Shown here one piece after another: positions 1,672-21,575 of a stretch of 64,000 bases of DNA. The position numbers were made by a program, and so were the translations under genes. Each line of letters starts with the position of its first letter. Within the stretch, counting starts at the first letter, position 1. A model generated the notes under the pieces. That model saw only the letters and a list, made by a program, of their open reading frames with translations, was not told the DNA's origin and did no database searches. Source of the DNA: Bdellovibrionales bacterium (GTDB lineage Bacteria; Bdellovibrionota; UBA1018); assembly GCA_016786465.1 (NCBI GenBank), contig JAEUWC010000019.1:25905-89904 (forward strand), in the 5' to 3' direction.

Positions 1672-3150
1672 ATGGGATTTCTGCGCCGAAAAAACCGACA
1701 GTCTTGGGCCCTGCTGGCCGGCTTATTTGCTGTGTTTTTTGCGTGTGGAAGTAACCAAAAACCGCTCCCAGAAAAAACCCCAATTGGTGACATCGCCACC
1801 CGAGACCTTGCCGAATCCATGCGCCTGATCAAGGAAGCGCAGATGACTTGCGCGGCCGGGGTTTTGGGAAGTCCTGAATGCAATCCTTCGGTCGCTTTAG
1901 TCGCAGTGGCGCTGGATACCAACGTCGCTGTTTGCACGGGTGCTTTGATTGAAGAAAACCTGGTCTTGACCGCTGCCAGCTGCCTTCCTCACGAACTGCG
2001 CGAAGAAGGCGCGAACTGTAAGGGCCGAATTCAATTTGCGTTTGCCGCTGATTCAACTCGATCCCCGGTTTCTGTGGGTTGTGATCGAGTAATCGAAATT
2101 TCGCAAAAACCTTCGGCACAAACCCGAGTGTCGCCTGATAGCGTGGTCATTCGGTTAGAGAAATCACCCAAGCGTCCGATCTTGGTGGTTCAAGAACAGG
2201 GCGGACTTTCGGATGGTGAAAAGGCGACGAGCTTTCGGATTTTCCGAGAAACCAACGGTGGATCGGGTTTTCTAGGGGCCAAAATCGAAAAAATCACTTG
2301 CCAGGCGAAAACGGGAAGCGTGGCGCTGCTCACTTACCAAGGACCTGGATCACCCAACGCTCTGGTTTCAGATTGTACCTTTCATAAGGATCAAAGGGGC
2401 GCACCGCTATTAGGAAAAACCGGAAACCTTCAGGCGATTTTGGGTTCGGAAATGCCCACTTTGGATGCGATGGGAGCATTCGGTACGCTTTTGGTATCAG
2501 GAAAAACCTTAAAACCCTTGATTTATGCCACTCAAGTGGGCTGCGCGCCGCTTTCCAGTATTTCCCTAAGGCGCCCAGGCCCCGGTTGCGACGCTGTTGA
2601 AAATTATAAAAGCAGCGATGAACTTGTGAAGACGGCTTTCAATCGAATGGACCAAGCCGCGCAAGATCGATCGCGCTTAGACATTGTGAAAGAATGGTCG
2701 AAAAAGCATCTTCCTCATCTTCAAGATGCGATTCGATGGCAGCCGCGACTTTTGCCAGCGAACTTGATCAAAATTTCTCAGTCGGGAAGCCCGAGCTTAC
2801 AAGACAATGTTTTCTTTCCTTTTCCCCAGTGTTTTGAAGATGCGACAAATTGGCGAAAAGATCGTCGGTTTCGTACGTTCCTGGACCTGTTCATGAAGTC
2901 GCGCTACACCGAAGGCCCGTTTGATCTTCCTCGGTGGGTGTTTCGACTTCGTCTTGACGAATACCTCAGGCCTGCTCCGGAAATCGTAGGTGCAATCGGG
3001 ACTGTCGAAGCAAAGCTTCATTTCAGCCCAGTGGGCGCAAAACGAAAAGGCGGATCGCCCGTGACGATGGAAGCGGCCGGTTCAAGCGGCGAGATGTCTG
3101 TCATTGCCGAAGAACAGGTTACCGTCTGTCCTAGCGCGACTTCACCTTGA
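1672..3150 (+). CDS. Lipoprotein with a degenerate (probably inactive) trypsin-like serine-protease fold
   Basis: Lipobox FFACGS. The motif CTGALIEENLVLTAASC mirrors the trypsin CGGSLI..WVLTAAHC, with the catalytic His replaced by Ser. The oxyanion/Ser195 block GDSGGP is replaced by DQRGAP. Confidence 0.5.
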   Translation: MGFLRRKNRQSWALLAGLFAVFFACGSNQKPLPEKTPIGDIATRDLAESMRLIKEAQMTCAAGVLGSPECNPSVALVAVALDTNVAVCTGALIEENLVLTAASCLPHELREEGANCKGRIQFAFAADSTRSPVSVGCDRVIEISQKPSAQTRVSPDSVVIRLEKSPKRPILVVQEQGGLSDGEKATSFRIFRETNGGSGFLGAKIEKITCQAKTGSVALLTYQGPGSPNALVSDCTFHKDQRGAPLLGKTGNLQAILGSEMPTLDAMGAFGTLLVSGKTLKPLIYATQVGCAPLSSISLRRPGPGCDAVENYKSSDELVKTAFNRMDQAAQDRSRLDIVKEWSKKHLPHLQDAIRWQPRLLPANLIKISQSGSPSLQDNVFFPFPQCFEDATNWRKDRRFRTFLDLFMKSRYTEGPFDLPRWVFRLRLDEYLRPAPEIVGAIGTVEAKLHFSPVGAKRKGGSPVTMEAAGSSGEMSVIAEEQVTVCPSATSP

Positions 3151-4597
3151 CCTTAAAGTTTCGAACCGGACCTATGATCGCTTTGCCATAGGCCGTATTT
3201 GAACTGACTCGCGCGTAGTAATTTCCCGGTTGAATCACGTAAAGTTCGCTGAAATTGATCAATACGGTCTTGGCAAACATGACCATTTGAAATTTGGGAT
3301 CAGACGCAATTTCAAGAAGGTATGATTTGGTTCGATCCGTGGTGTTCCAAGTGACCAAGGACTTCTTTCCCTTTTCAAGCGTCACGACTTCGCCCTCTTT
3401 GGGTTCCCGAACAACAGGTGGCGGAATCTTGAACTTCACCCGTTGCGTAGGGGATTCAAGTTCGAATCCCGATCGAAGAACGGCGGCGATCTTGTAATCG
3501 TACTGTGAAAGAGGGTCAAATTCTGGAAAAAGGACCGAGGGTTCCGTAACTTGAGTCGAAGTCACGGGTGCACCCTGAGCTGTCGTGATTCGAACTTTGT
3601 AATGCTTCGCAGGAACTTGTTCCCAATGCAGTCGGATTTGCGGAATCCAAGTGGGGTCCAAAAGCTTAAGCGCATTTTCAGCCGCTGCTTGAACGGTAAT
3701 TCGATTTTCACCCACGACCCGTTTTTGTGAATCCAAGACTCGGGTCACGTAATAACCTGGTTTTGCAAATGCCACTGGAACCGTGGCGCTGCCATCGGCA
3801 GCGGATTGGATCGGTTGAAGAACGCCCTTCGCGTTTGCTCCGGTATCGGCAACGATTTCCAGCATCGACCCTGGCAATGCCTTTTCAAGTTTGAAGCGAA
3901 TCTGAGTCACGACTTTTCCTGCTCGAGCCTGAGCCGCAGTCGGCTTTACGCTTCCGGCTTTCGGCGGAACTAGCCACTGAATATTTGATTTAACAAACGG
4001 CAGCACCGACGGGCTAGGTGTTGCAGAAGGTGCGACCTGAACGGGAACGGGCGGGGCTTTGGTGACTGAAAAAGTTTCGATGGGCTTTGGCGGAGCGACC
4101 ACTTTGGGAACAGTGGCTACGGCTTTGAACTTGGTCGACCAATCTTCTTGGGTCTTCTTGATTTTAATTTTTCCATCGCCACCTGAAAGCTGGCTAAAAT
4201 CAAAAGAAGCCAACGCCATTTCTCGGGTCAATTTCAGCAAAGAATCCGGTCCCATGCGGATTTCAAGATCGGGCTTTAGAACAAAGACGCACTCGGACTG
4301 GGGCCCGCTGACAATCGTGTCGTCGATGTAAAGGCTTTGGTTGGGCGTGACGGCGTCATAAACAAAGTTTTCACTGGGTTTTCGTTCGCAGCGGCCCGTA
4401 AATGACGAAACCAGTGCGATCGGTTCGCTCATTAGGGACGCATCATAAGTTCCAAAAATCCAATACCGGATTCGCTGTGACGACGTGGAAAGAAGCAAAA
4501 CCATCAAGGCCAGAAAAAGGGCGACGCCGATTGCGATCTTTTCGTAAAGCGGTACGCCTAATGGATCTTTTTCGGGTGCGACTGCGGCTGTGCTCAA
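3131..4597 (-). CDS. Membrane-anchored FecR-like domain protein with two C-terminal FN3-like repeats; paralogue of 8548..10419
   Basis: N-terminal TM helix IAIGVALFLALMVLLL. Central segment SLYIDDTIVSGPQSECVFVLKPDLEIRMGPDSLLKL resembles FecR (PF04773). The C-terminal ~60-aa units YKVRITT...VKFKI and YLLEIASDPKF...YYARV...FKVKV are shared with the 8548 protein. Confidence 0.45.
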   Translation of the reverse strand: MSTAAVAPEKDPLGVPLYEKIAIGVALFLALMVLLLSTSSQRIRYWIFGTYDASLMSEPIALVSSFTGRCERKPSENFVYDAVTPNQSLYIDDTIVSGPQSECVFVLKPDLEIRMGPDSLLKLTREMALASFDFSQLSGGDGKIKIKKTQEDWSTKFKAVATVPKVVAPPKPIETFSVTKAPPVPVQVAPSATPSPSVLPFVKSNIQWLVPPKAGSVKPTAAQARAGKVVTQIRFKLEKALPGSMLEIVADTGANAKGVLQPIQSAADGSATVPVAFAKPGYYVTRVLDSQKRVVGENRITVQAAAENALKLLDPTWIPQIRLHWEQVPAKHYKVRITTAQGAPVTSTQVTEPSVLFPEFDPLSQYDYKIAAVLRSGFELESPTQRVKFKIPPPVVREPKEGEVVTLEKGKKSLVTWNTTDRTKSYLLEIASDPKFQMVMFAKTVLINFSELYVIQPGNYYARVSSNTAYGKAIIGPVRNFKVKVKSR

Positions 4598-4613
4598 AAT
4601 CGCTCCTTAGGGT

Positions 4614-6437
4614 TTAATGAAGTTCAGCCATGACCAAGGTAATATCATCATCCAGCGGGCGGGGCCCTGTGTGGTCAAAGACGGCTTGTGTGACTTGCTG
4701 GATCCCAGCGCCAACGTCTGCGCGGCTAGCCGAGGTCAAGACATTGCGCAGGCCTTTTCTTCCAAATTGCTTCAATTCTGCGTTCATCGCTTCGATCAGA
4801 CCGTCGGTATAAAGAAATAGGCGATCACCCGGCTGGTAACTTAGGCCGATCATTTCCCAAGTGCTTGCGTCTAAATTTCTCGATTCGCCCAGGCGATTTC
4901 CACGCGGAGTCAGGCCTTTGATTGCTCCACCGCCGGAAAGTGAAACAAAATATTGGGGGTTGTGACCCGCGGATGAAGCGAAGATCTTCTTGGCTTGGTG
5001 ATCCACGACACACGCAAAGTAAGTCATCATGATGTCGCCTTGTGCAGAATCAAAAATGGCTCGATTGGCCAATTCTAAAACGCGTTTGGGCGAAATCTGG
5101 TCGGGTTGTTCGGTTGCGAATTTTTCAAACATCGAAAACGAAGACCGTGCAGCCGCGGTGATCAGCGCCGAGCTGACCCCGTGACCCGTGGCGTCTGCAA
5201 TTGCAAAAACGGTTTTGCCGGGAAATTCAGCGATTCCCCACCAATCACCACCGCATTCGCTTGCCGAGCGGTAAAAAGATGCGACTTGGCTTTGGGCTGT
5301 TGAAATGAATTCGCGGGGAAGAAGTTTTCCCTGGACCGCCTGTGCAATTTTCAGTTCCTGGTCTAGACGCGATTTTTCGACTAGATCTTGAATCAACGCT
5401 TTGATCTTTTGGCTCATGAAATCGAACGAACGGGCCAGTGCGCCGATTTCATCTTTGGATTCCACAGCGATTTCGATATCAAACTGACCTTCGCTGATCT
5501 GGTGGGTTGCGCGAAACAGATCCCGAATGGGCGAAGTAATTCGGCGAATCAGGAAGGTCCCGGCCAGAATCAAGACTGACATCAGCCCCATTCCGAAAAG
5601 AACGATCTTTTCAACCAAGCTGTACATCGCCTGAACGACCTTGCGGTATTCGGCGCGAACCAAGACGTAAATTCCCAGGTCTGTTTTCGAAAAGCTGGAA
5701 AGGTATTCTTTGTCGCCTGTGACTTTCTTGGAACCGTTCGGGAGCACGCTTTGTTTGGCGGATAAAAAAACTGGGTCTTGGCTAAATGTGGCCTGATTGG
5801 ATCCCAAGATTTGGGTCACATCTGAATCCATCAATGCGTAGCCCTGCGAATCGACAATCGAAAAGCGATTGGTTCCGGCAGACAGTGAATCGAAAAAGGT
5901 TTTCATCGAAACAAAGCCGACCAAAAGCGGTTCCGGACTTCCTTCGCCCAGAAGCAGAACCATTAGGCGGGGTTCTTTTGGGTCTTTCGTGACGTTTCTG
6001 AAAAGGTAGCGCTTGGTCTTTAATTCCGCCATCCACGGCAAAAGGTCGGGTTCGGCATCAAATCCTTTGCCGACTTTAATTGGCGGATTCACCGCTTTGG
6101 GTTTCGGATCTTCTGCAGTCACTTCGAAAAGTTCGAAACCTTCAAGCACGCTTTGATTCTGGAAGACCTGTTCTAAATTCGTTCCCGGAATTTTTGCAGA
6201 TGCAGCGACAGAACGAAGCACGTCCATCGCGCCTTTCAGGCGTCCGTTGATTTCGCGCGCAGAAAAACTAGCTTCTGAAACCTGGTTGTCAAAAACGCTG
6301 ACTTCTTTGTCAGAAACAAATAGGCGACTTGCCGTGAAACCCAGGAAACCAATGGAAACCAAAACGATCGCGATGAGCGCGAGCAGGATCTTTCCGGCCA
6401 CCGTGATTCGAATCGGAGTAGTTGAATCGGGTTTCAC
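4614..6437 (-). CDS. Membrane sensor phosphatase: TM, periplasmic domain, TM, HAMP, then PP2C (SpoIIE/RsbU family) Ser/Thr phosphatase
   Basis: Two TM helices flank a ~250-aa extracytoplasmic domain. The HAMP region is IRDLFRATHQISEGQFD..EIGALARSFDFMSQKI. PPM motifs are intact: GGDWW, IADATGHG, LFLYTDGLIEA, DDDITLVMAELH. Confidence 0.7.
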   Translation of the reverse strand: MKPDSTTPIRITVAGKILLALIAIVLVSIGFLGFTASRLFVSDKEVSVFDNQVSEASFSAREINGRLKGAMDVLRSVAASAKIPGTNLEQVFQNQSVLEGFELFEVTAEDPKPKAVNPPIKVGKGFDAEPDLLPWMAELKTKRYLFRNVTKDPKEPRLMVLLLGEGSPEPLLVGFVSMKTFFDSLSAGTNRFSIVDSQGYALMDSDVTQILGSNQATFSQDPVFLSAKQSVLPNGSKKVTGDKEYLSSFSKTDLGIYVLVRAEYRKVVQAMYSLVEKIVLFGMGLMSVLILAGTFLIRRITSPIRDLFRATHQISEGQFDIEIAVESKDEIGALARSFDFMSQKIKALIQDLVEKSRLDQELKIAQAVQGKLLPREFISTAQSQVASFYRSASECGGDWWGIAEFPGKTVFAIADATGHGVSSALITAAARSSFSMFEKFATEQPDQISPKRVLELANRAIFDSAQGDIMMTYFACVVDHQAKKIFASSAGHNPQYFVSLSGGGAIKGLTPRGNRLGESRNLDASTWEMIGLSYQPGDRLFLYTDGLIEAMNAELKQFGRKGLRNVLTSASRADVGAGIQQVTQAVFDHTGPRPLDDDITLVMAELH

Positions 6438-6486
6438 TGAGTCATAGGATAACCAAACATCCTAAAAACTCAAAACTTTCCAGCGG

Positions 6487-8370
6487 CTAAGCCGCTTTCT
6501 TTTGCGTTGCGCCAGCTGACAGATCTTTGCGCACGAAGTAGGCCTTTTTGGGGATCGCAAGAATCATCACAGTCGCGTCATCGGGAAGCGCGGCTGCGGC
6601 TTCTCCCCAGATTGCTGTGGCCTGTTCGGTCAGTTTTTCTGAAACCCGATCAGCTTGTGGTCCGAAGTGATCCACGGCTTGTGCGATTTCCTGGTACATC
6701 CGGTCTTGCGACAGAATTCTTTCGCCTTTCAGATTTCGGACGCCAAACCATCCAGGCGTGTGGAAAAACATCACATCTTCCGGGAGAAGTTCGAAGTATT
6801 CTTCTTTAAAAGTGTAGTCGGCCGAACGTCCCAGCGGGCCATTTTCACGAACACCCATTCGCATGAATCGAAACGAAAACACTTTTGGCGGTTCTTTGGG
6901 TTTAGGAGGCAGCCGATGGATCCATGGAGCAGGGCCGCTGCAATTCACCATTTGAATCAGGCCCGCGTGAATGTTGAAGATGTAAACGAACGCGTTCATG
7001 GTCGTTTGGCCTTTGCCGGTTGCAAACAACGTCGAGTTGAGTTGGTTCACCAGTCCCTGAAGCGTGGGGTCTTGGCGATTGGCCTTTAGGTTTCCAATAT
7101 ACGAACTTAAAGAACCGTGCATGGCGGCGGTCACCAACGCACCTTGAACACCGCGGTGATTGGTGTGACCGATGACTCCGATGGCGTAGTCACGAACTTG
7201 AAAAGTGGTCCACCAGTCCCCGCCAAATTCAGGGCAAGCCATCATTTTGCCAAAGATTTGAAGATTCTCATGCTTCAAGGCCTCGCGCGGCGTGAACTGT
7301 TCTTGGATCGTGGCAATCGTTTCGCGGTTTTTCTCGGTGGCGACTTTAGCGGCCGTTTGAGCCATCAAGCTATCAATCTTACCGGCCATAGCGTTGAAGG
7401 ATTCCCCAAGCGCTCCGATTTCGTCGTTGCCCATGATGTCAGCGCGAACTCGAAAGCTGAATTCACCCTTTGCGACCTGTGACGTCGCTTCCACCATTTG
7501 CCGAAGTCCTTCGGTCAATCGACGAACGAAGACCAGGGTTAAGCCGATCGCAATGGCTAGGATGCTTCCACCTAGGGTTAACGTGCGCAGAATCAGATCG
7601 CGAATAGCTGAAAACGCTGCATCTCGCGGAATGATTCCGATCACGGTCAGATCGCTGGGCTTGAGTCGCTGATAAGCGGCAATCATTTCGCCAAAATCCG
7701 TGTCCCAAAGCTGGGCTCCGGAATCAAAGTTTCCGTTAAGTACCGGGCGAACCAGTTTTTTGATTTGTCGCTCGGGCAGCATTCCGCGCTTGCCCTTGTA
7801 CTGGCCAAAGACCACGGTTCCCACCGGATCCACCAGATAAAGGTCAAACGAAGTTCCGTTTTCGCCCATTCCAAGATCGGGAAGTGCAAAGGCCACATAG
7901 GCTTTACGTGCAATCACGTTATCGTCGGCTCCGATTTGCTTAGGCGCAAATCCGATGACGACTTCTTGATTTTGGGTGCGGCCCACAAGATAGGGTTCTG
8001 AAACAAAACGTCGAGCCGTCCACCCCAGCGTGTCTAGGGCGCGCCCCTGGATGGCGCCTTCGGATCCAAAAGTCTTGGTCACCGAAAGACTTCCGTCTTC
8101 TGAAATATCCAAAAGCAAAAGACCGCGCAGGCCCAGCTTTTTGGATCGACCCCGAAAAAGGACTTCATTCGGGTCCGCGGTGTTGGGATTTTGACGCTGC
8201 TGAGGTCCAATGGATTGTTGGTGAAAAAGTTGAAGCAGCATCACGATGGATTCAATTTGGCTTTCAACGGACTTGGCGGCGGCTTGAACGCGATTGAAGT
8301 TAAAGTCGACCACGTACGAGCTCTTGTCCTCGACGATATGGGTCGTGCCCGCCAGCATCACGGCGCCCAA
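6487..8370 (-). CDS. Paralogous TM-HAMP-PP2C-like sensor protein with degenerate metal-binding motifs; the true start is probably upstream (about 8445) at a non-canonical CTG
   Basis: The HAMP (LRQMVEATSQVAKGEFS..EIGALGESFNAMAGKI) and PPM fold are recognisable, but DATGHG becomes GVIGHT and YTDG becomes HTPG. Homology to the paralogue's TM1 continues upstream of the first canonical start codon. Confidence 0.6.
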   Translation of the reverse strand: MGAVMLAGTTHIVEDKSSYVVDFNFNRVQAAAKSVESQIESIVMLLQLFHQQSIGPQQRQNPNTADPNEVLFRGRSKKLGLRGLLLLDISEDGSLSVTKTFGSEGAIQGRALDTLGWTARRFVSEPYLVGRTQNQEVVIGFAPKQIGADDNVIARKAYVAFALPDLGMGENGTSFDLYLVDPVGTVVFGQYKGKRGMLPERQIKKLVRPVLNGNFDSGAQLWDTDFGEMIAAYQRLKPSDLTVIGIIPRDAAFSAIRDLILRTLTLGGSILAIAIGLTLVFVRRLTEGLRQMVEATSQVAKGEFSFRVRADIMGNDEIGALGESFNAMAGKIDSLMAQTAAKVATEKNRETIATIQEQFTPREALKHENLQIFGKMMACPEFGGDWWTTFQVRDYAIGVIGHTNHRGVQGALVTAAMHGSLSSYIGNLKANRQDPTLQGLVNQLNSTLFATGKGQTTMNAFVYIFNIHAGLIQMVNCSGPAPWIHRLPPKPKEPPKVFSFRFMRMGVRENGPLGRSADYTFKEEYFELLPEDVMFFHTPGWFGVRNLKGERILSQDRMYQEIAQAVDHFGPQADRVSEKLTEQATAIWGEAAAALPDDATVMILAIPKKAYFVRKDLSAGATQKKAA

Positions 8371-8547
8371 GCTAAAGACCAGCGCCGAAGTGGTGAGGAA
8401 AACGATCTTGGTTCTGACTGAAATTCGGGTCGGGCTTTGGGACAGAAAAAGGGCCTCCTGAAGTCTTCTCTATTTCTTCGGGTTTTATGGGGAATATTTT
8501 GAGTCGTTTTTCAAGACCCACCAAAGGCGTGCCGATAAAGAGAGGCG

Positions 8548-10419
8548 ATGTCTTCTAAAGCGTCAAAAGTTCAATTTATTTCCAGAGGTTGGGGGCTCGA
8601 AAGGCCGCTGAGCTATGCATTGATTGGAACGGGGGCCTTGGGCCTTTATTCGTCGATCAACAACGAGCGCTGGAAAAGGGTCGTCGAAGATGAAAATTCA
8701 GGCGCCAAAATTGGGCTTGTGGAATCCAATGGGTCGGGCGTTCGCGTCAAGCATGCGGGCGGATCCGTTTGGCAGGATCTGAGCGGAACCCAAGACGCGA
8801 TCGAGGGGGATTCGATTTATACCGATTCCACCGCCAGCGCGAAACTTCGGTTAAAGAGCAAAGACGTTTTGGAAGTGGGTCCCGGAAGCTTGGTCATTGC
8901 TCGATTGGAAAAATCCAAGCCCGCAGAAGACCTACCCTGGTGGCAAAAAGTAGCGCAGCCTTTAAACGACGATAAACCCAAACCCATGCAGCTTGAAGTG
9001 AAGAAGGGTACCGTCCAAGTTGGCATCTTGGCTTCAGGCGGGGCGTTGTCGCTTACGGCTGGTGGTCAAAAGCTTCAGCTGAAATCCAAGGGCGGGCCTG
9101 CACAAGTGAGAATTCAAGTGGACGGAACAGATTCGGCCGGAAAACCGATTGTGAAACTTCAGTCCGCCGGCGGCAACGTTCAAGTTGCCGAAGCAGGAAG
9201 CAAGGTTTCTCGAGCCCTTCCGACGGGGCAAGCCGTTGTGGCCGCAGCCGGGGTAAATGGGGCCGCTTGGAAAACTTCCAAGGCCATCGAAACGCCTGTG
9301 ATTCAGGCCGAAAAAGTAACCACTCCGAAAGTGGTCGGCCCGATTCCGGGAACGGAATTGAAAGCAGATGCTGGAAAATTAAATGAAGTGACTTTTTCGT
9401 GGGAAAAGTTGCCGCCGGGAATTTATGGCGAACTTGAAGTGCGATCAGTTCAAACCACCGCGCTTGCAGCGCGATCAGAAGGTAGCCGAAATGGGGCGTC
9501 GGTTTCACTTCCTTTAGGTTCATTTGACTGGCGCGTTCGCGCACGGGCTGGTGAAGCGGGACAGAAGTCCGAATGGACATCCTATCAACGTCTGGATCTA
9601 GTGGAATCGTTAGGCGGACGTCCAAGCATCACGCAGGCTCCGGATCCAGAATTCAAAAAAGTGATCGCCCTTGCTGCCGCACCAAAGCCGGCGCCGGTTG
9701 CGGCTCCAAAGCCGGCTTCTGCTGCAAAGCCTGCTTTTTTGAATGCAAAACCTAGTTTTTCAGTGGCAAAGCCCAAGCCGCAAGCCACTTGGGTTCCCAA
9801 AGCCGGAAGTACTCCGGTTGCTGTAAAGCCGGCAGCAGTCGCGGTTCCGGTCAAGGCAGTGATCGGAGCAATAGCGCCTTGGTTGGTGCCTGCACCTGTC
9901 AGTCAAATGGATCGATTGACGTTTGATGCAGGTTGGATGGCAGTGGGTCTAACGAAAAACTATGTCGTAACCGTCTTTAAGGACGGCGTGCAGACGGAAA
10001 AAGAAACCACAACCGAAGCAAAACGAAGGATCACAATCGTCGACCTGAATGTGAAGCAGGGGTATCAGTTTCAAGTTCAAGCCATGGACGCAAACGGCAA
10101 GGTGATTGCTGAAAGCCCGAAAGTGGCCATCGCATTAGAACTTGGGATTCCAAAAGGAGCCGAACCGGTGGATGGCGCTGAAGTCGCAGGATCGGACAAG
10201 ATCATTCTGACTTGGTCCAAGGTTCCGATGGCTGAATTTTACGATATCGAAATCGCCGGTGACCCCCAGTTCAAAACGCAGACCCGGTCCACGCAAACGG
10301 ATAAGAACTTCGTATCCTTTAGAAAGACCACACCGGGGACGGTTTACTGGCGCCTTCGTGCTAAATCGGGGGCAAAAAATAGCCAATGGTCAGCACCCAG
10401 GAACTTCAAGGTCAAATAG
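8548..10419 (+). CDS. FecR-like domain protein with an Ala/Pro/Lys-rich linker and three C-terminal FN3-like repeats; divergent from the phosphatase operon
   Basis: DAIEGDSIYTDSTASAKLRLKSKDVLEVGPGSLVIARL is FecR-like. The linker is APKPAPVAAPKPASAAKPA. Repeats end ...WRVRARAGEAGQKSEWTS and ...YWRLRAKSGAKNSQWSAPRNFKVK, matching the C-terminus of 3131..4597. Confidence 0.45.
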   Translation: MSSKASKVQFISRGWGLERPLSYALIGTGALGLYSSINNERWKRVVEDENSGAKIGLVESNGSGVRVKHAGGSVWQDLSGTQDAIEGDSIYTDSTASAKLRLKSKDVLEVGPGSLVIARLEKSKPAEDLPWWQKVAQPLNDDKPKPMQLEVKKGTVQVGILASGGALSLTAGGQKLQLKSKGGPAQVRIQVDGTDSAGKPIVKLQSAGGNVQVAEAGSKVSRALPTGQAVVAAAGVNGAAWKTSKAIETPVIQAEKVTTPKVVGPIPGTELKADAGKLNEVTFSWEKLPPGIYGELEVRSVQTTALAARSEGSRNGASVSLPLGSFDWRVRARAGEAGQKSEWTSYQRLDLVESLGGRPSITQAPDPEFKKVIALAAAPKPAPVAAPKPASAAKPAFLNAKPSFSVAKPKPQATWVPKAGSTPVAVKPAAVAVPVKAVIGAIAPWLVPAPVSQMDRLTFDAGWMAVGLTKNYVVTVFKDGVQTEKETTTEAKRRITIVDLNVKQGYQFQVQAMDANGKVIAESPKVAIALELGIPKGAEPVDGAEVAGSDKIILTWSKVPMAEFYDIEIAGDPQFKTQTRSTQTDKNFVSFRKTTPGTVYWRLRAKSGAKNSQWSAPRNFKVK

Positions 10420-13693: not shown

Positions 13694-14341
13694 GGGAATT
13701 GCCGCAAGGACCAGGCTTAGAATCCATTCCCAAGCCGATGTGGTTTGGGTTCCCGATCCGGGCGCAAGAACGGACCCTCCCCAAGAATAAAAGAAGCTGG
13801 CCGGAAGCATCGCCAAAAAAGTAATGCCCATGAATGGGGCGACCCGCATTTGCGTCATCCCAAACGCCCAATTAATGGACCAAAAAGGGATGAAGGGAAT
13901 GAAGCGCGCTGAAAAAAGATACTTGCCTCCGTGTAGCTTGGCTTCATGAAGGATGGGGTCAATCTGTTTTCCCCATTTTGCCAAAATCCAAGCTTTCAAA
14001 AATCTTCGCGCCAAAAGAAAGGCCAAAGTCGCGCCGGCAGTGCTTCCAAACGCCACCAAAATGGGTCCAATCCATTTACCAAAAAACATCCCAGCCAAAA
14101 GATTCAAAAAAACCGCCGCAGGAAAAACGGCAAGAAAGGAAATGATCGTGTAGCCCAGAACAAATGCAACGGTGGATTCGACCCAGTTGGCTTGCACCCA
14201 GTTTTGCATCACTGAAATTCTTGAAAGCAGGTCGGGAAGGTAAGAAAGATAGGCGACCAATCCAATGGCCAAGAACAAGAAAAATGCCCCCAAAAAAGCG
14301 GCGGGATTCCTTATGTTTCGAATTGGATCCGTTTTTTCCAT
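13649..14341 (-). CDS. TVP38/TMEM64 (DedA-superfamily) membrane protein, last gene of the egt-linked operon
   Basis: Membrane protein with the ...LAGMFFGKWIGPILVAFGSTAGATLAFLLARRFL... signature. Overlaps the upstream ATP-grasp gene end by 31 nt. Confidence 0.55.
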   Translation of the reverse strand: MEKTDPIRNIRNPAAFLGAFFLFLAIGLVAYLSYLPDLLSRISVMQNWVQANWVESTVAFVLGYTIISFLAVFPAAVFLNLLAGMFFGKWIGPILVAFGSTAGATLAFLLARRFLKAWILAKWGKQIDPILHEAKLHGGKYLFSARFIPFIPFWSINWAFGMTQMRVAPFMGITFLAMLPASFFYSWGGSVLAPGSGTQTTSAWEWILSLVLAAIPLAVRLYEKKRKRSH

Positions 14342-15573
14342 TCTTCCTCAAGGGCTTTTCTAAATGCCGGAATTTCAGGTTCTTGATCAAAACTGGCATG
14401 AATCGCTAAGTACCGAAATGAATCGGGGTCTTGGGGCAGGCGCGAAAGCCTTTTGCCTTCTTCATAAAGCGGGTAGCCTTCGATCCAGCCGGGAAGATTA
14501 GAAAGTTCGTCCCAGTCTGATTCCCCCAATCCTTTTTTGACTTTTGCGTCTTGAAACAGACGAAAAACCAGGCTGGACGCAATTTTTTGAAGTTTTTTTG
14601 TGTCTGGAAGTTTTGGGTCTTTTCCACTTGCCAGAGCGACGGCGACGTCAATGCTGTTTACACCCAAGACGGAATCGTAAAGGTCGCTAAACTGGGACGC
14701 GCCACGGGGGTTGACTTCGATGATTTTTAGCTGTTGGGTTTTTGGATCAAAGCGCCACTCGATGTTAAAAAGTGTGGAACGAAGGCCGGATTCAAAGGCT
14801 AGTTTTAATGAGGCTTCCGAAATTTGTTTCTGAACGGCGCGGGGTAGTGAGCTTGGAAATCGAAATTCAGAAAAACTTTCAGTTCCATCGTAAAAATGGG
14901 AATCCGTGATTCCGATGGGGTGCGCCTGGGTTTGGGTGACGTACCCTTCAAAAGTGCATTGGATTCCTGGAACCCAGGATTCGGCGATAAATTCGCGGGC
15001 GGAAACTTTTAAACCCGCATTTGCGGCAAATTCGTGAAAAGGGCGCATTAGGAACCGAAATAAAAAGCGTTCGCGAATCGTCAGCCGTTGGTAAGCTTCC
15101 AAGTCTGCCTGTTGCTCAATTTTCTTGGATCGAACTGAAAGCAAACCCTTCACGGGTTTTGCAAAAAAGGGAAATGCGAAAGCAGACGGCCCGCTACCTT
15201 CAATCATCTTGGAAAACCCCGGTGTAAATTCGGGGCAGATCTTTTTCTGAAGTTCACGGGACAATCTTTTGTGGGACAGTTTCAAAAGATCCGGAAGGCG
15301 CGGCCCGGGAAGCCCAAGACGATCGGCAATATAGGAAGCTGCTAGGCAGCCGGGGTAATCCTGAAAGCTCAAAACGGCAGTGACGGGGGGGTTTAAGCGC
15401 CTGGCTTCTTCGACCCATTCGTCACAAGTCTTGATGATTGATCGGGTCCAGGGGTTGCGTGATCCCTGGAATTCTTTGAATTCAACCTGGGCGTCAGGAT
15501 TCCTTCGGCTCCATTTTTCAAAGCCCTTCTTTTCGAAAATGCTTGGAAAAATGACCCAGATTCGTTCACGCAT
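14311..15573 (-). CDS. ATP-grasp family ligase, translationally coupled to egtD
   Basis: C-terminal ATP-grasp core KIIEVNPRGASQFSDLYDSVLGV. Its start ATG(15573) overlaps the egtD stop as ATGCGTGA. 420 aa. Confidence 0.6.
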   Translation of the reverse strand: MRERIWVIFPSIFEKKGFEKWSRRNPDAQVEFKEFQGSRNPWTRSIIKTCDEWVEEARRLNPPVTAVLSFQDYPGCLAASYIADRLGLPGPRLPDLLKLSHKRLSRELQKKICPEFTPGFSKMIEGSGPSAFAFPFFAKPVKGLLSVRSKKIEQQADLEAYQRLTIRERFLFRFLMRPFHEFAANAGLKVSAREFIAESWVPGIQCTFEGYVTQTQAHPIGITDSHFYDGTESFSEFRFPSSLPRAVQKQISEASLKLAFESGLRSTLFNIEWRFDPKTQQLKIIEVNPRGASQFSDLYDSVLGVNSIDVAVALASGKDPKLPDTKKLQKIASSLVFRLFQDAKVKKGLGESDWDELSNLPGWIEGYPLYEEGKRLSRLPQDPDSFRYLAIHASFDQEPEIPAFRKALEEEWKKRIQFET

Positions 15574-16510
15574 GAAAAAGGACTTCCACGAAATTGTGAT
15601 TTTTATCCGACCAAGACTTCACGAATTTTAGCCCCAGGCGATGAAATCTTTGGATCAGTTCAATTTCGTCAAATTTATGTGAATTCTCGGTGTGAATGGA
15701 TTCACCGCGGCGAAATGAAATTTTGTGCCCTAGCACTTCGATTTCCTGGTCAAAGTCCGAAACCAAGTGCATTTCGATTCGTCGTTCATGGGGATTGAAG
15801 CGTGCCTCGTGCCGAAAGGTTTCGGGTTGAACGCGGGCACCCAATTCTGAACGCATCCGGACCAATAGATTTCGATTGAATTGGGCTGTGATTCCAGCCG
15901 AATCCCAGTAAGCCGGAACTAATTCTTCTTTGGATTTCCAGCGATCTACCCCAAGGATGAAAGCGCCCTTTCCGGGCCTGATAAAATCTAAGGTCCGTTG
16001 AATCAGGGCGTCGATTTCGTTGGCATCTAAGTTTCCCAACGTCGATCCGGGGAAAAAAACCAATCGACGCCGATTTGACCCCAGCTTCTGGTTTAAATCC
16101 TGAAAGGGTTCGTCTTTAAGAAAATCACCTTCAAAAGGATCCACCCAAAGTCGAGGAAGCTTCTTGGCTAAGGAATGAACGCTCATTTCCAAATAAGCTG
16201 GCGAATAATCCATCGGGACGTAAGTCGGAAGTTTCGTCCCGGGCGGAAGCTTCGAAAGAATTTTGGCGATTTTTTCGCCGGATCCCGCACCGTATTCAAC
16301 GATGACATCAAATTCAGACATGTGATGGGCGATCTCAGAACCATGGATTTCAAAAATCTCGTTCTCCGAGCGCGTCAGGTAGTATTCGGGTAGGTCGCAG
16401 ATTTTCTCAAAAAGTGCGGCGCCGTTTTTATCGTACAGGTACTTGGGATGGGTTCGCTTGGGAACGGATTGAAGGCCTTGAAGGATGTCCTGACCAAAAC
16501 TCGGGGTCAT
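15566..16510 (-). CDS. egtD: EgtD-like SAM-dependent L-histidine N-alpha-methyltransferase (ergothioneine pathway)
   Basis: PKYLYDKNGAALFEKICDLPEYYLTRSENEIF and VIVEYGAGSGEKIAKIL match EgtD hallmarks. The chosen start is the internal Met (MTPSFGQ...) whose ATG overlaps the egtB TGA as ATGA. The longer ORF in the track would overlap egtB by 241 nt. Confidence 0.7.
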   Translation of the reverse strand: MTPSFGQDILQGLQSVPKRTHPKYLYDKNGAALFEKICDLPEYYLTRSENEIFEIHGSEIAHHMSEFDVIVEYGAGSGEKIAKILSKLPPGTKLPTYVPMDYSPAYLEMSVHSLAKKLPRLWVDPFEGDFLKDEPFQDLNQKLGSNRRRLVFFPGSTLGNLDANEIDALIQRTLDFIRPGKGAFILGVDRWKSKEELVPAYWDSAGITAQFNRNLLVRMRSELGARVQPETFRHEARFNPHERRIEMHLVSDFDQEIEVLGHKISFRRGESIHTENSHKFDEIELIQRFHRLGLKFVKSWSDKNHNFVEVLFHA

Positions 16511-17823
16511 TTTTGGCCTCGGTCCGTGGGTGCATCGATCGAGCGCGCCAGTCGAAAGCCAGAAAACTGCCACTGTGTCGCTGGTGGAAAAAAGTTTCTG
16601 TAAGTGGGGCGGAAATGGTTTCGGGGTGTGGCAACTGACCCCCCTCGAAGCACCATTTGGTTGATCATAAACTTTCCGTTGTATTCGCCCAGTGCTCCGT
16701 CCTGCGGTTTGAAACCCGGATAAGGAAGGTACGCGCTTTGGGTCCATTCCCAGACCTGTCCCGTGATTTCTAAAGGGCGATCCACATCCGTCGACCCAAC
16801 GGACTGGGGTTCGCTAGGTGCCACGTCTAAGAAGTGCTTTTGCGTGCGCGAAACCTGGTTCGAAGTGGCCGCAAGTTCCCATTCGTTTTCGGTCGGCAAT
16901 CTGGCGCCGTGGGTCCGGCAATAGGCATCCGCTTCGAAATACGAAACGTGGGAAACGGGACTATCTAGCCAAAGGGGATCCGCCATGGATACGGGGCCAT
17001 TCAGGGTGTAAACGCTTTTGTTTTTTAAATCCCAATACATAGGCGCGACAGGTCGTCGATCCCATCCGTCGGATAGCCATTTCCTGGGGTCCGCATAAGC
17101 CTTGGATTTTAGGAACTCCAGGTACTCTCCATTGCGCACCCAAGTGGACGACATTTCAAATGGGGCCACCCAGTTCGAATACCGAGGCGCTTCGTTGTCG
17201 AAGTGGAAGCCTTTTCCCGAAAAACCGGTTTCAATCAGGGCCCCTTCAAAGCGAACCCATTTCCGGGTCAAAGAAGATCTGGGATCAGCGTTCCGCGGGG
17301 AACTGTTTTTGAAGTAGCTGGGCAAAAGGGGCTGTAAACCGAGAATCGACTTTAAGTCGGTAATCAGAAGTTCCTGGTGCTGCATTTCGTGGTGAATTCC
17401 CACCTCGAGATTCGAAAGAATTCTATTTTGGCTTTGAGGATCGAGCTTGGGCAGCTGCTTTCCCAACAAGTGCGCCATTTTTTCGTCGCAGTCTTTTCGG
17501 TACTGCATCACGGATTTCAAATTCGGCCGGGACAGATGAACGCGTCGGTTTCGATCCAGGTGATCGCCTAGGCCCTTGTAGTAAGAATTGAAAAGGTAAC
17601 CAAACTGCGGATGAAAAGCATCGTGCTTGGCTTCAGCCATCAAGATGAAGGTTTCAAAGAACCAAGTGGTGTGGGCCAAGTGCCATTTCAGGGGGCTTGC
17701 TTCTGGAATAGGTGCAACATTGAAGTCGTCTGGGTCCAGGGGTTCGACAATCGCAAGGCTTAGGGCTCGCGTTTTTTGAAAGTCTTCCAGTAATGAAACC
17801 GAAGTGGCGGTTGCTTCTTTCAT
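16507..17823 (-). CDS. egtB: EgtB-like sulfoxide synthase: DinB_2 domain plus FGE-sulfatase (formylglycine-generating-enzyme-like) domain
   Basis: N-terminal WHLAHTTWFFETFIL and C-terminal ...GGSVATPRNHFRPTYRNFFPPATQWQFSGFRLARS are typical of EgtB/OvoA-class iron sulfoxide synthases. Confidence 0.75.
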   Translation of the reverse strand: MKEATATSVSLLEDFQKTRALSLAIVEPLDPDDFNVAPIPEASPLKWHLAHTTWFFETFILMAEAKHDAFHPQFGYLFNSYYKGLGDHLDRNRRVHLSRPNLKSVMQYRKDCDEKMAHLLGKQLPKLDPQSQNRILSNLEVGIHHEMQHQELLITDLKSILGLQPLLPSYFKNSSPRNADPRSSLTRKWVRFEGALIETGFSGKGFHFDNEAPRYSNWVAPFEMSSTWVRNGEYLEFLKSKAYADPRKWLSDGWDRRPVAPMYWDLKNKSVYTLNGPVSMADPLWLDSPVSHVSYFEADAYCRTHGARLPTENEWELAATSNQVSRTQKHFLDVAPSEPQSVGSTDVDRPLEITGQVWEWTQSAYLPYPGFKPQDGALGEYNGKFMINQMVLRGGSVATPRNHFRPTYRNFFPPATQWQFSGFRLARSIDAPTDRGQK

Positions 17824-17848: not shown

Positions 17849-18829
17849 ATGAAAAATTCCCTGGGTCCAATTTCAAATTTCATCAAACACAATTTTCGCC
17901 ATTTCAATGCGGCCGCTTTGGTTGATGCTGCAGAGGGCTATAAAACACACCTGGATTCCGGGGGAAAAATGATGGTGACGCTGGCCGGTGCCATGAGCAC
18001 TGCCGAATTGGGACTGACCTTGGCGGAAATGATTCGCCAGGACAAAGTCCACTTGATTAGCTGTACCGGCGCAAACCTGGAAGAAGACGTCTTCAATTTA
18101 GTTGCGCATAGTCACTATGAACGTGTTCCACACTACCGCCAGCTTTCACCACAAGATGAAGTGAAGCTTTTGGAAAAACACATGAATCGCGTCACTGACA
18201 CCTGTATTCCTGAAGGCGAAGCGATGCGCCGCATGGAAAAGGTCATGTTGGAACTTTGGACGGATGCTGACAAGAAGGGTGAAAGCTACTTCCCGCACGA
18301 ATTTTTCTACAAAGCAATCCTGAGCGGTAAGCTCAAACAATTTTACGAAATCGACCCGAAGGATAGTTGGATGGTTGCGGCTGCGGAAAAAAATCTGCCG
18401 ATGATCGTTCCAGGCTGGGAAGATTCAACGCTAGGCAATATGTACGCTGCAGCATGTATGCGCGGCGATGTGAAACGCGTTCATACGACGCGCACTGGAA
18501 TCGAATACATGACCTCACTTGCGGAATTCTATCAGTCCGTAACGAAGCGCGCTTCTCTTGGGATGTTTCAAATTGGCGGTGGCATTGCCGGCGACTTCCC
18601 AATTTGTGTCGTTCCAATGCTTCACCAGGACATGGGAATTGAAGCACGTCTTTGGGGATACTTTGCGCAAATCAGCGATTCAACCACCAGCTATGGATCC
18701 TATTCAGGCGCTGTTCCGAACGAGAAAATCACCTGGGGTAAGCTCGGCGTCGACACTCCTAAGTTCATTGTCGAATCCGATGCAACCATCGTTGCTCCGC
18801 TGATCTTTTCGTACATCTTGAACCACTAA
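17849..18829 (+). CDS. Deoxyhypusine synthase-like (DHS/homospermidine-synthase fold) protein
   Basis: LISCTGANLEEDVFNLV resembles the DHS TTAGG.EEDL block. About 326 aa, consistent with bacterial DHS-like proteins. Confidence 0.5.
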   Translation: MKNSLGPISNFIKHNFRHFNAAALVDAAEGYKTHLDSGGKMMVTLAGAMSTAELGLTLAEMIRQDKVHLISCTGANLEEDVFNLVAHSHYERVPHYRQLSPQDEVKLLEKHMNRVTDTCIPEGEAMRRMEKVMLELWTDADKKGESYFPHEFFYKAILSGKLKQFYEIDPKDSWMVAAAEKNLPMIVPGWEDSTLGNMYAAACMRGDVKRVHTTRTGIEYMTSLAEFYQSVTKRASLGMFQIGGGIAGDFPICVVPMLHQDMGIEARLWGYFAQISDSTTSYGSYSGAVPNEKITWGKLGVDTPKFIVESDATIVAPLIFSYILNH

Positions 18830-19110: not shown

Positions 19111-20643
19111 GTGAAGACACATACTCGGGTTTTGACCATACCAGTCATGTTTGGCTCAATAGCGGTTTGGCTAGGAGCATCTCAGCTTCATGCGGCGCCC
19201 CCTGGGAGCGGTATGCGGGCCGGATCCTTGGTTTCCGCTTTAACGACAGCGCGGCGCGCAGAAGTCGCGCGGGACTTTGGGAAAGCTTACGGGCTTTATG
19301 ACGCGATTGAGAAGCAGCCCGATATGCTGGGTGTCGGAATGGCGGGGAAGGTTCGAATTCTTTCTTCTCAGGGGAATTACGCACGCGCGATCGAAATGGC
19401 GACCGAGTTTATTGACGCAGGTAATCCATTTCAGTTTGAAGTTCGTTTGGCTCGCACCGAGGCGTGGATTCGAAGCGGTGATCGTGAAAAATGCGTGAAA
19501 GAGCTTGAGAGAATCGAGCGTATTGACGCAAGTCATCCAGAAGTCATTTTCCAGCGGGGACTTTTGGCTTTTGAGAACAAAGAGTACCTGACCGCGCGTA
19601 CATTGTTTACCCGCGCCGTAAAGACCGATGACAAGCACCTTCGTGCACGTTTTCATCTGGGCCGCGTTTTGATGCAGTTGGCAAGTTACGACCAAGCGAT
19701 CGCTGAATTTAATATTTTGTTGGATGGTTACCCAAACCAAGTCGAGTTCTTAGGGTACCTGGGTGATTCGTTATTGGCCGTGCGTCGTTACAAAGACGCG
19801 ATTGACGCTTATCGTCGAATTTTAAAGGAAAATCCAGCATCGGGTCTGGCTTATGAACGCTTGGCTGATGTCGAAGTCGAAAAGTCGAATTTGGATCAGG
19901 GCATCGATCTTTACAAGCAAAGCTTGGAATTCGATGCAATGCGCGCAACTGCGTCATTGAAGCTTTCGAAAGTCTATCAGCGCAAGGGTCGCCTTGCAGA
20001 AGCTCGGATTGAACTTCAAAAAGCGATCAATCGTGCTCCGAGCAATGAATCCTTGGCTCAAGAATTCGTAGCCGTTTTGGAAAAGGAACGTCGCTTTGAT
20101 CAAGCCGGTATATTCCTGAAAAACTTCCACGAACGTTTTGCAGACAATACCTGGGCCTTTGTTCGTTACACGCGGATGCTTTTGGCTCTGGACGAAAACA
20201 AGGAAGCCAAGTCTGTGGTCGAGCGTCACCTGGCTCAGCGTCACGAGCAAAGCTTGGAAACGATTCTGCTGACCGCGGAAGTCTATCGTCGTAACGAAGC
20301 TTACGCCAAGGCCTTGGCGGTTTTAGAAGACGCCAATAAAACTTGGCCTGACACGGACCTGGTTTTGTTCAACATGGCCGTGATCAAGGATTTAGATCAG
20401 AAGAACAAAGAAGCCTTGGATGCATACGCCAAGGTTCCACCGAGTTCGTCTTTGTATTCGAAAGCTGTAGTCAACACCGCATTAGTCCACGAACGCATGG
20501 GTAAGACCGACGTCGCCCTTCGAATCCTGCAAGGCGTTGAATTGCCAGGAACCGAAGGCGCATTGGTTCGCGCCAAGATCAAAGAATTGGCGATGTCCAT
20601 GGAAAGAAATCCCGCATCCGCGGAAGGAAAATCTAAAAAATGA
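19111..20643 (+). CDS. Secreted tetratricopeptide-repeat (TPR) protein, first gene of a four-gene envelope operon
   Basis: Signal peptide, then multiple ~34-aa repeats with the W-LG-Y / A-F / P pattern (...AIAEFNILLDGYPNQVEFLGYLGDSLL...). Confidence 0.65.
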   Translation: MKTHTRVLTIPVMFGSIAVWLGASQLHAAPPGSGMRAGSLVSALTTARRAEVARDFGKAYGLYDAIEKQPDMLGVGMAGKVRILSSQGNYARAIEMATEFIDAGNPFQFEVRLARTEAWIRSGDREKCVKELERIERIDASHPEVIFQRGLLAFENKEYLTARTLFTRAVKTDDKHLRARFHLGRVLMQLASYDQAIAEFNILLDGYPNQVEFLGYLGDSLLAVRRYKDAIDAYRRILKENPASGLAYERLADVEVEKSNLDQGIDLYKQSLEFDAMRATASLKLSKVYQRKGRLAEARIELQKAINRAPSNESLAQEFVAVLEKERRFDQAGIFLKNFHERFADNTWAFVRYTRMLLALDENKEAKSVVERHLAQRHEQSLETILLTAEVYRRNEAYAKALAVLEDANKTWPDTDLVLFNMAVIKDLDQKNKEALDAYAKVPPSSSLYSKAVVNTALVHERMGKTDVALRILQGVELPGTEGALVRAKIKELAMSMERNPASAEGKSKK

Positions 20644-21575
20644 AGGTACTGATCCAAATGAAGGGGCATTGGGTTGTGCATACCCGAGCACTTTTGGTCA
20701 TCGCAGGAGCAGTCGGGTGCATCGTGGGAATCGGTGCGGCGAAGAAGTCGACCGCTTCGGCCAACGTCGTTCACTTTGAAGTGAAGAAAGGTGACGGAGC
20801 CAAGACGCTTTCAAAGAAGCTTTACGGATCGCGTTGCTATTGGAACGAAATCATCGCGCACAACCCCAAGTTTTTTAAAAAGAACATCCTTTTGCCCAGA
20901 AACGTTCGCATCAAGTTCAATCCCTATCAGCTGGTTTCTAAAGAAAGTTTAAAGTGCCAAGGTCCAATGCCACATTCCAAAGATTCAGCGATTTCGTTCG
21001 CGTATCTGGATGCAAGCGGGTTGAAACCCAATAAGCCGGCAGTCATGCGCAAAAAGTCAGCTTTGGCATCGTCACCTGCTTTGATTCAGCGAAAGCCGGC
21101 CTCGAAAACGCAGGCCTCTCTTCCAAAAGAAGTGAAAGCCGATTCGACTAAAGACGTACGCGTGATCGTGCCTTCGAAACCCGTTACGGCACCCGTGGCC
21201 GAATCCGGAAATTCTGCTGACGCTCCTGCGTTGGTTGAAGTCAACTTATCCAAGCAATCGCCTGTGAAGTATCCGGTCCGGCAAAAAGAAACTTACGCCG
21301 CAGTCGAGACTGAAAAAATCTCGGCTTCGGAAGTGAAAAAGGTTCGCCCGATTGCGCCTTCGACGGCAAAAGCCAGCGACATTGGCCCAGTTAGCCTGAC
21401 TTCATTCTACGAACTTGCGATTCCAGATTCGAAGAAGATTGCCGAAGTAGCACTTTCGAAGTCACCGCCTAAAGTTAGGGCTGATTTTGTTCCTTCTGAA
21501 CCCATTCCCGTTAAAAGAGTTCCTGCATCACAGCCCAGTCTTGGGCAGAAAGCTCTTGAGGTTCAGGCTCTATGA
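20640..21575 (+). CDS. LysM-domain membrane protein with a Pro/Ala/Ser-rich linker
   Basis: TM helix LLVIAGAVGCIVGIGAA, then VVHFEVKKGDGAKTLSKKLYG..W.EII..N......ILLPRNVRIKF (LysM pattern). Overlaps the TPR stop by 4 nt. Confidence 0.6.
   Translation: MKVLIQMKGHWVVHTRALLVIAGAVGCIVGIGAAKKSTASANVVHFEVKKGDGAKTLSKKLYGSRCYWNEIIAHNPKFFKKNILLPRNVRIKFNPYQLVSKESLKCQGPMPHSKDSAISFAYLDASGLKPNKPAVMRKKSALASSPALIQRKPASKTQASLPKEVKADSTKDVRVIVPSKPVTAPVAESGNSADAPALVEVNLSKQSPVKYPVRQKETYAAVETEKISASEVKKVRPIAPSTAKASDIGPVSLTSFYELAIPDSKKIAEVALSKSPPKVRADFVPSEPIPVKRVPASQPSLGQKALEVQAL

Follow-up and report, generated by a model that had tools for sequence, protein, structure and literature searches.

How extracytoplasmic signals are passed to membrane PP2C phosphatases of the RsbU/SpoIIE/SiaA class is poorly understood. 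Phosphatases of the PPM class are proposed to be controlled as dimers through HAMP or coiled-coil linkers, with linker-mediated dimerisation as the activating step (PMC12143880), and the C-terminal pseudo-PP2C domain of E. coli RssB has lost its catalytic capacity and acts by binding (PMC12143880). FecR-domain accessory proteins of the COG4254 type are encoded together with CHASE2 histidine kinases or adenylate cyclases (PMC5192318, PMC9239204). Here we analyse a 64 kb stretch of DNA (hereafter the window; G+C content about 50%) from a metagenome-assembled genome annotated as 'Bdellovibrionales bacterium' (locus tags JNL01_*), in which two genes for membrane HAMP-PP2C proteins each lie beside a gene for a FecR-like periplasmic protein with FN3-like domains.

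We estimate at roughly 0.55 the probability that this region contains two ancient subtypes, in one copy apiece, of a Bdellovibrionota envelope-sensing gene pair that works by partner switching. Judged from the loci compared here, the PP2C/FecR-like gene pair has so far been seen only in Bdellovibrionota, and a literature search found no description of a FecR-PP2C pairing.

Conservation of the PP2C/FecR-like gene pair

The cluster consists of four open reading frames (ORFs), which an earlier note made from the DNA letters alone had located correctly and which we call p1 to p4 after their products. Three are encoded on the minus strand: p3 (6487-8445; listed ORF start 8370) is followed after 49 nt by p2 (4614-6437; 607 residues) and, after a further 16 nt, by p1 (3131-4597; 488 residues), the downstream partner of p2. 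The fourth, p4 (8548-10419; 623 residues), is encoded on the plus strand. Both p2 and p3 have the order transmembrane segment, periplasmic loop, transmembrane segment, HAMP domain and PP2C domain, the last being of SpoIIE type in p2 and degenerate in p3; p1 and p4 are bitopic periplasmic proteins. As read from its sequence, the region of about 100 bp between the divergent p3 and p4 genes (8446-8547) is presumably a shared control region; a promoter and terminator scan of the cluster gave nothing above chance, with no sigma-70-like consensus in 8446-8547.

We found that the pairing, which the earlier note had proposed, is conserved in related loci (numbered here with the prefix L), whether these are reached from the PP2C or from the FecR-like side. 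A gene of the FecR-like family adjoins the PP2C gene in L001/L002 and L005, which hold p3 orthologues, and in the more distant L004 and L006/L007. In three Bdellovibrionales genomes (L008-L010) a p2 orthologue is followed by a p1-like gene on the same strand; in L008 and L009 the two genes have 4 nt in common, an overlap that would indicate co-translation. Every Bdellovibrionales-type locus found from the PP2C side (L001/2, L004-L010) has a FecR-like neighbour. From the FecR-like side, a HAMP-SpoIIE neighbour was present in four of the five sampled loci (L016, L017, L019 and L020), L018 being without one.

A metagenome scan with an alignment of p2-type proteins yielded a further 80 loci (L022-L101). 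A FecR-like gene is immediately adjacent to the PP2C gene in 46 of these, either downstream and co-directional (13 loci) or upstream and divergent (33 loci); it lies within 1.8 kb in two more, and 22 loci were not fully assessable. A FecR-like gene is present in 29 of the 37 loci whose flanks both extend to 3 kb or more. Both orientations match the window, the downstream arrangement being of the p2-p1 type and the divergent one of the p3-p4 type. Besides the 33 metagenomic loci, the divergent layout occurs in L001, L004, L005, L016, L017, L019 and L020. As a control, the remote HAMP-SpoIIE protein P0007 had neither a FecR-like nor a STAS neighbour.

The two pairs are related to one another, as the earlier note had recognised in calling the module duplicated, but that word overstates the resemblance: p2 and p3 are 25% identical over 218 residues and have in common the HAMP domain and the beginning of the PP2C domain, and the likeness of p1 and p4 is confined to their C-termini. 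Orthologues outside the window are closer (36% identity for p2 with L022, 44% for p3 with L017 and 33% for p4 with L017). Since every window protein is nearer to orthologues from other loci than to its window paralogue, the window holds two ancient pair subtypes side by side and not the outcome of a recent duplication.

Two of these loci have further neighbours that we record in their own right. A gene for a PilZ-domain protein (142 residues, E = 3.7e-05; L004 2962-3390) follows the active p3-like PP2C gene of L004 and may indicate a link to cyclic di-GMP. The stretch 3027-7568 of L018, the locus in which FecR-like protein P0024 has no PP2C neighbour, encodes upstream of P0024 a lipoprotein-like protein of 641 residues with an HELRH motif and downstream of it a small PAS protein and a STAS-like protein.

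Putative partner-switching genes in related loci

When the ORFs from the 80 metagenomic loci were clustered, recurrent neighbours of the pair emerged. One, found in 54 loci, is a protein of about 156 residues; its N-terminal half is STAS-like, with an invariant I-N-S-x-G motif, and is followed by a C-terminal extension that is either Cys-rich (CxxC...CxxC) or acidic. Examples beside HAMP-PP2C genes lie at L072 8760-9242, L086 6734-7192 and L022 868-1500. When its profile was compared by hhalign with B. subtilis RsbV (a sequence entered by hand), the match had E = 5e-4 and placed INSCG on the DSTG phospho-site. The family has at least 1197 homologues, including some in cultured Bdellovibrio species, and no Pfam domain on record; the matches listed are all 'hypothetical' and so far come only from Bdellovibrionota. 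The identification of the neighbours as putative STAS proteins is weakly to moderately supported.

The second recurrent neighbour, present in 43 of the 80 loci, is a GHKL-kinase-like protein of about 290-330 residues with the motifs E..N, D.G and GGAGxGL. In six loci (L055, L056, L064, L078, L086 and L092; ORFs of about 815-880 residues) its domain forms the C-terminal part of a fusion with the PP2C protein, and the unfused gene sits between the PP2C and STAS-like genes. The assignment as a kinase is a weak one, drawn from the motifs, the PP2C fusions and very weak database matches. In the closest relatives of p2 (L022-L031) the STAS-like gene and then the kinase-like gene are transcribed in one direction, and the PP2C gene and then the FecR-like gene in the other. 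Among the 37 loci with long flanks, 29 have the STAS-like gene, 19 have the kinase-like gene and 16 have FecR-like, STAS-like and kinase-like genes together.

Just downstream of the PP2C and STAS-like genes, 35 of the 80 loci also encode a protein of about 510-660 residues and, close by, one of about 130-150 residues, with a receiver domain common to both. In the one such pair tested (L086 7196-8716 and 8713-9102) the larger protein is a hybrid histidine kinase (HisKA/HATPase/REC) and the smaller a CheY-like receiver consisting of a single domain. Partner switching may accordingly be connected with a phosphorelay.

None of these partners is encoded in the window. The earlier note had reported no STAS, anti-sigma, kinase or sigma gene here, and the searches bore this out: Pfam scans of the 56 window ORFs of at least 90 residues detected no STAS, HATPase-type Ser kinase, anti-sigma or sigma family, and hidden Markov models (HMMs) built from the relatives' STAS-like and kinase-like neighbours had no match in the window at E <= 1. 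Searches of the window ORFs by phmmer with SpoIIAA, RsbV, RsbW and SpoIIAB also found nothing, which is a weak test. Given that most relatives carry STAS-like or kinase-like genes beside the PP2C gene, the PP2C family most likely works by partner switching, with the partners unlinked or lost here. The frequency of these genes in related loci thus runs counter to the earlier note's view that the wiring falls outside the partner-switching paradigm.

The intact and the degenerate PP2C

The architecture described for p2 and p3 in the earlier note was confirmed by Pfam matches to HAMP and SpoIIE and by two transmembrane segments in each protein, which enclose a periplasmic loop of about 240-255 residues. 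In p2 the transmembrane segments span residues 17-35 and 278-296, the HAMP domain residues 295-346 (5400-5555, minus strand; E = 2.6e-13) and the SpoIIE-type PP2C domain residues 407-606 (4620-5219, minus strand; E = 1.2e-33, 117.2 bits against a gathering cut-off of 25 for PF07228), the last being identified from Pfam, a PDB match and motifs. All catalytic motifs of p2 are intact (GGDWW, DATGHG, YTDG and DDDIT), and all four acidic metal-binding positions are present (GGD, DATGHG, TDG and DDD). The top PDB match is the PP2C domain of SiaA (6k4e; E = 2e-07) and the top NCBIfam match is also SiaA (E = 3.5e-24), at 85 bits against a family cut-off of 700. Orthologues of p2 in L008-L010 and L022-L031 are 30-33% and 32-36% identical to it, respectively.

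The p3 protein matches HAMP (7375-7530, minus strand; E = 2.1e-12) and, more weakly than p2, SpoIIE (6556-7155, minus strand; E = 1.4e-10, 41.8 bits against the cut-off of 25). Its gene had been called at 6487-8370 in the earlier note; that ORF exists, but the listed start, like the NCBI start, cuts off the first transmembrane segment, which is present only if translation begins at an in-frame CTG at 8445. A ribosome-binding site (AGGAGG, 8459-8454) lies 8 nt upstream of this codon, and the restored N-terminus aligns with those of the orthologues. The true start is therefore probably CTG 8445, that is, a non-canonical start codon or a mis-annotation.

We found that p3 is short of two of the four acidic metal-binding positions that are complete in p2. 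In its D[AV]TGHG motif Asp is replaced by His and in its TDG motif Asp is replaced by Pro, and the same two positions are lost in the orthologues of L001, L005 and L016, which are 36-38% identical to p3. In alignments, the D[AV][TS]GHG of active enzymes corresponds to GHTNHRG, GKVETRG or GKVEG[KR]G in p3 and its orthologues, and the TDG of those enzymes to TPG, SPA, TNG or TVG. The p3 protein does keep the first and last acidic motifs, and all four acidic positions are kept in each of the 77 complete PP2C genes of the 80 metagenomic loci. In SpoIIE the metal ligands are Asp610, Asp628, Asp746 and Asp795, of which Asp628 binds Mn1 and Mn2 and Asp746 binds Mn1 (PMC3517971); from the alignment, we infer that the residues lost in p3 are the equivalents of Asp628 and Asp746. 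Because two metal-binding Asp residues have been lost, p3 and its orthologues are probably pseudophosphatases. Of the two sensor phosphatases described in the earlier note, then, probably only p2 is one.

In L001, L005 and L016, which are all the other complete loci of the p3 clade, there is a 4-nt overlap between the degenerate PP2C gene and one that encodes an SLT-domain lytic transglycosylase of 560-605 residues (L001 11899-13647; L005 4949-6766; L016 2292-3983). The window holds no SLT homologue, and an HMM search of the p3-clade loci found no STAS-like or kinase-like neighbours. The p3 protein may act as a signal-dependent binder, as a decoy partner of p2 or as a regulator of cell-wall remodelling.

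The FecR-like/FN3 proteins

In p1 a transmembrane segment (residues 21-39) is followed by a divergent FecR-like domain (residues 26-148; 4154-4522, minus strand; i-Evalue 3.7e-07 with a profile of the N-terminal part of the p4 family), a Pro-rich linker and C-terminal FN3-like domains. The AlphaFold2 model of p4 (pLDDT 80.7) comprises an anchor helix (residues 18-37), a FecR-fold periplasmic domain (residues about 54-240; 8707-9267, plus strand), an Ig/FN3 domain, a disordered linker and two FN3 domains. The linker is of low complexity and rich in Ala, Pro and Lys (residues 357-452; 9616-9903, plus strand; pLDDT <50), and p4 orthologues have an E/K/R-rich linker in its place. The tandem C-terminal FN3-like domains of p4 (residues 457-531 and 537-622; 9916-10413, plus strand) are homologous to the C-terminus of p1: about 120 C-terminal residues are common to the two proteins (E = 1e-9), and nothing outside them aligns. 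The FN3 assignment of the earlier note holds directly for p4, which matches Pfam fn3 (E = 9.1e-07, 29.4 bits against a cut-off of 25), has three beta-sandwich domains in its model and retrieves tandem FN3 proteins with Foldseek (E = 1.5e-10). The corresponding match of p1 is sub-threshold (E = 0.007, 17 bits), and there the assignment draws support from the homology with p4.

The FecR assignment of the earlier note fared less simply. Searches of p1 and p4 with Pfam FecR (PF04773) and NCBIfam gave no FecR match, even with sub-sequences at E <= 10, and p1 has a weak match to DUF7354 (E = 0.014). Read strictly, the lack of a FecR match is one of the outcomes that the earlier note had named as counting against it; more sensitive comparisons nevertheless favour its assignment. 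Orthologues come nearer to Pfam FecR or reach it: those of p4 score 22.1 (L001_659) and 20.8 bits (L004), and those of p1 that follow p2-type PP2C genes score 27.0 (L009) and 20.5 bits (L008), against a cut-off of 24. A word-indexed homologue search with p4 returned p4 itself only; an exhaustive search with its residues 1-260 found 65 cluster representatives among 1.84 billion, and Pfam FecR matched 19 of 61 p4-family members at E <= 0.01. A profile of the family's N-terminal module, run against 620 window ORFs, matched p4 (E = 1.5e-60) and p1 (E = 2e-07) and nothing else. The periplasmic domain of the p4 model matches the fold of the anti-sigma regulators PupR and BDI_1681, the PupR match spanning 126-146 residues and not the whole 213-residue domain. 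The label 'FecR-like' would thus stand for p1 and p4 only by way of orthologues, family members and predicted structure. The named members of the p4 family are all 'hypothetical protein' and all from Bdellovibrionota.

In p1 and p4 alike, the transmembrane segment begins at residue 18-21. As their cytoplasmic tails are only about 20 residues long, p1 and p4 have no N-terminal cytoplasmic anti-sigma domain, which would take up about 80-90 residues. Pfam families of sigma-70/ECF (extracytoplasmic function) factors and TonB receptors were found neither in the window nor near L001, L009 and L016-L020. The earlier note was therefore right to set this cluster apart from FecI/FecR systems. We also considered the cytoplasmic tail of the FecR-like proteins as a substrate of the PP2C domain and dropped the idea, as the tails share a basic/aromatic motif and no conserved Ser or Thr.

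Two further genes touch on these proteins. The same metagenome-assembled genome encodes, on another contig, a third member of the FecR-like/FN3 family (P0021, JNL01_02255). Convergent with p1, and overlapping its 3' end by 20 nt, lies a plus-strand gene (1672-3150) for a protein of 492 residues with a weak resemblance to the trypsin-like fold. A role as site-1 protease for p1 was considered for it and dropped, since the gene is not conserved in related loci; the gene tables of those that were inspected did not include its product.

A model for the pair and its alternatives

We propose that each pair joins a double-pass membrane HAMP-PP2C protein of the SpoIIE/RsbU type to a single-pass FecR-fold/FN3 periplasmic protein that would serve as its extracytoplasmic co-sensor. 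The co-sensor, which combines a short tail in the cytoplasm, a FecR-fold domain close to the membrane, a long and flexible linker and FN3-like domains at its far end, would contact the periplasmic loop or the transmembrane helices of its cognate PP2C protein, whose HAMP domain and helical linker would in turn control both the dimer state and the activity of the PP2C domain. The PP2C domain would dephosphorylate a phospho-Ser form of the STAS-like protein and the GHKL-type kinase would phosphorylate it again, which is to say that the pair would work by partner switching. In this genome p2 would act on partners encoded outside the window. The p2-p1 pair would represent a catalytic, co-transcribed subtype and the p3-p4 pair a divergent subtype, in which p3 is most likely a non-catalytic, signal-dependent binder or a modulator of p2.

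Several observations weigh against this reading. Gene adjacency is the sole link between the two proteins of a pair, and no FecR-like neighbour could be detected in 10 of the 58 related loci that could be assessed. The STAS-like profile matches PDB entries weakly (RsbV, 6m36, E = 0.15; TM1442, E = 0.25), and the kinase-like protein resembles PDB entries and SpoIIAB at the level of the N-box only. The STAS-like and kinase-like HMMs do match L020 and L018, but they find nothing in the window or in L001, L004-L006, L008-L010, L016, L017 and L019, and copies without such genes nearby may use another output. Furthermore, no known sensor domain is recognisable in the periplasmic loop of either p2 or p3 (no Pfam domain at E <= 1, CHASE2 included).

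The fold of the p4 periplasmic domain, and the Pfam FecR matches of orthologues and family members, could also be taken to mean that p1 and p4 are anti-sigma factors of FecIR-type cell-surface signalling, in which a signal from an outer-membrane TonB-dependent transducer releases an ECF sigma factor. We regard this as extremely improbable: the tails are too short to hold an anti-sigma domain, the related loci, like the window, are without sigma-70/ECF and TonB-receptor genes, the conserved neighbour is a PP2C and not a sigma gene, and the PupR match covers only part of the domain. Mere coincidence is harder to dismiss, given that the evidence for coupling comes entirely from gene order and that orphan HAMP-SpoIIE genes such as that of P0007 exist; the PP2C protein would then be an orphan partner-switching enzyme, and the envelope proteins beside it unrelated neighbours held in place by inherited synteny. 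Yet adjacency has been kept at 25-35% identity, in two orientations, with differing flanks and in both directions of search; start and stop codons overlap in L008 and L009, and even the FecR-like gene of L018 that is without a PP2C neighbour lies near a STAS-like gene. We therefore think coincidence quite unlikely.

Two other proposals concern p3. It could be a decoy subunit that forms inactive or retuned heterodimers with p2, so that two FecR/FN3 inputs would act on one output. Activation by linker-mediated dimerisation in the PPM class (PMC12143880), the position of p3 and p2 49 nt apart on one strand and their shared HAMP domain and PP2C start, including the dimer/switch region, are all consistent with this; however, other genes of the p3 clade have no active PP2C gene beside them, and 25% identity between p2 and p3 does not imply heterodimerisation, which leaves the proposal unlikely. 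In the other, the pseudo-PP2C of p3 and p4 would form a trans-envelope scaffold that regulates SLT without phosphorylation, the p2-p1 pair having replaced SLT here. The 4-nt overlap with the SLT gene in all three other complete p3-clade loci argues for it, as does the fact that this clade alone has lost catalytic Asp residues and is without STAS-like and kinase-like neighbours. On the other hand, the three loci may be of shared ancestry, the window has no SLT homologue, and regulation of SLT by a PP2C-like domain is conjecture; we hold this proposal as tentative and unlikely. A bolder combination, low in likelihood but not negligible, would make p3/p4 a phosphorylation-independent trans-envelope device that controls SLT elsewhere and has been rewired onto p2/p1 here, alongside a partner-switching system specific to Bdellovibrionota, in which the extracytoplasmic co-sensor would be FecR-like and the substrates would belong to the unannotated STAS-like/Cys4 family, perhaps in connection with envelope events during predation. 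Partner switching by two ancient pair subtypes is the reading we prefer. The FecR-like, STAS-like/Cys4 and kinase-like families are publicly 'hypothetical' and occur in cultured Bdellovibrio, so that genetic analysis is feasible.

Other genes in the window

Elsewhere in the window, an ergothioneine-type cluster on the minus strand (14311-17823) combines an ATP-grasp gene with genes for an EgtD-like histidine methyltransferase (Methyltransf_33, E = 3e-91) and an EgtB-like FGE-sulfatase/DinB_2 protein. It is followed at 17849-18829 by a homologue of deoxyhypusine synthase (E = 4.8e-43), here in a bacterial genome, and at 20640-25290 by three consecutive ORFs (311, 291 and 943 residues) without a Pfam match. 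Genes for a diadenylate cyclase (DAC), a YbbR-domain protein and a phosphoglucosamine-mutase-like protein at 32581-35788 make up a cyclic di-AMP operon of the cdaA-cdaR-glmM type. Two genes belong to families typical of eukaryotes: a lipase maturation factor homologue (LMF1/LMF1_C with a DCC1-like domain; 52312-54144, minus strand) and a PMT-type protein O-mannosyltransferase homologue (57518-58909, plus strand).

Comparison with known systems

Among the closest known systems are SiaABCD of Pseudomonas aeruginosa and RsbU-RsbV-RsbW. As in these, the enzyme is a SpoIIE/RsbU-type PP2C protein, SiaA being likewise a HAMP-PP2C protein, and the PP2C genes of relatives are flanked by genes for a GHKL-like kinase and for a small STAS-like protein in which a Ser is conserved. 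Unlike these systems, the window has no gene for a STAS protein, SiaC or a kinase, p2 scores far below the SiaA cut-off, and the relatives' STAS-like proteins carry a Cys4 or acidic C-terminal extension and match no Pfam family. To our knowledge, no described partner-switching module has a dedicated FecR-fold/FN3 periplasmic partner. Such a conserved partner would provide a concrete and testable input component for a membrane PP2C.

Like RssB, p3 has a PP2C fold, in this case with two of the four metal-binding Asp residues lost; unlike RssB, it is a membrane HAMP protein and not a response regulator, and its inactivity is a prediction. The degenerate p3 clade is in this respect a candidate bacterial membrane pseudophosphatase.

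From FecR and PupR regulators p1 and p4 differ in having no anti-sigma domain, ECF sigma factor or TonB transducer, and in having distal FN3-like repeats and a PP2C partner. They also recall the accessory systems of CHASE2 proteins, in which a periplasmic FecR-domain protein is likewise encoded beside a transmembrane sensor enzyme unconnected with ECF factors, and by analogy this precedent suggests an accessory-sensor role for the FecR-like protein. The sensor here is, however, a HAMP-PP2C protein without CHASE2, and the FecR-like protein has FN3 in place of LysM. If the pair works as we propose, the role of the FecR fold would extend from anti-sigma factors and partners of CHASE2 proteins to phosphatase-based partner switching.

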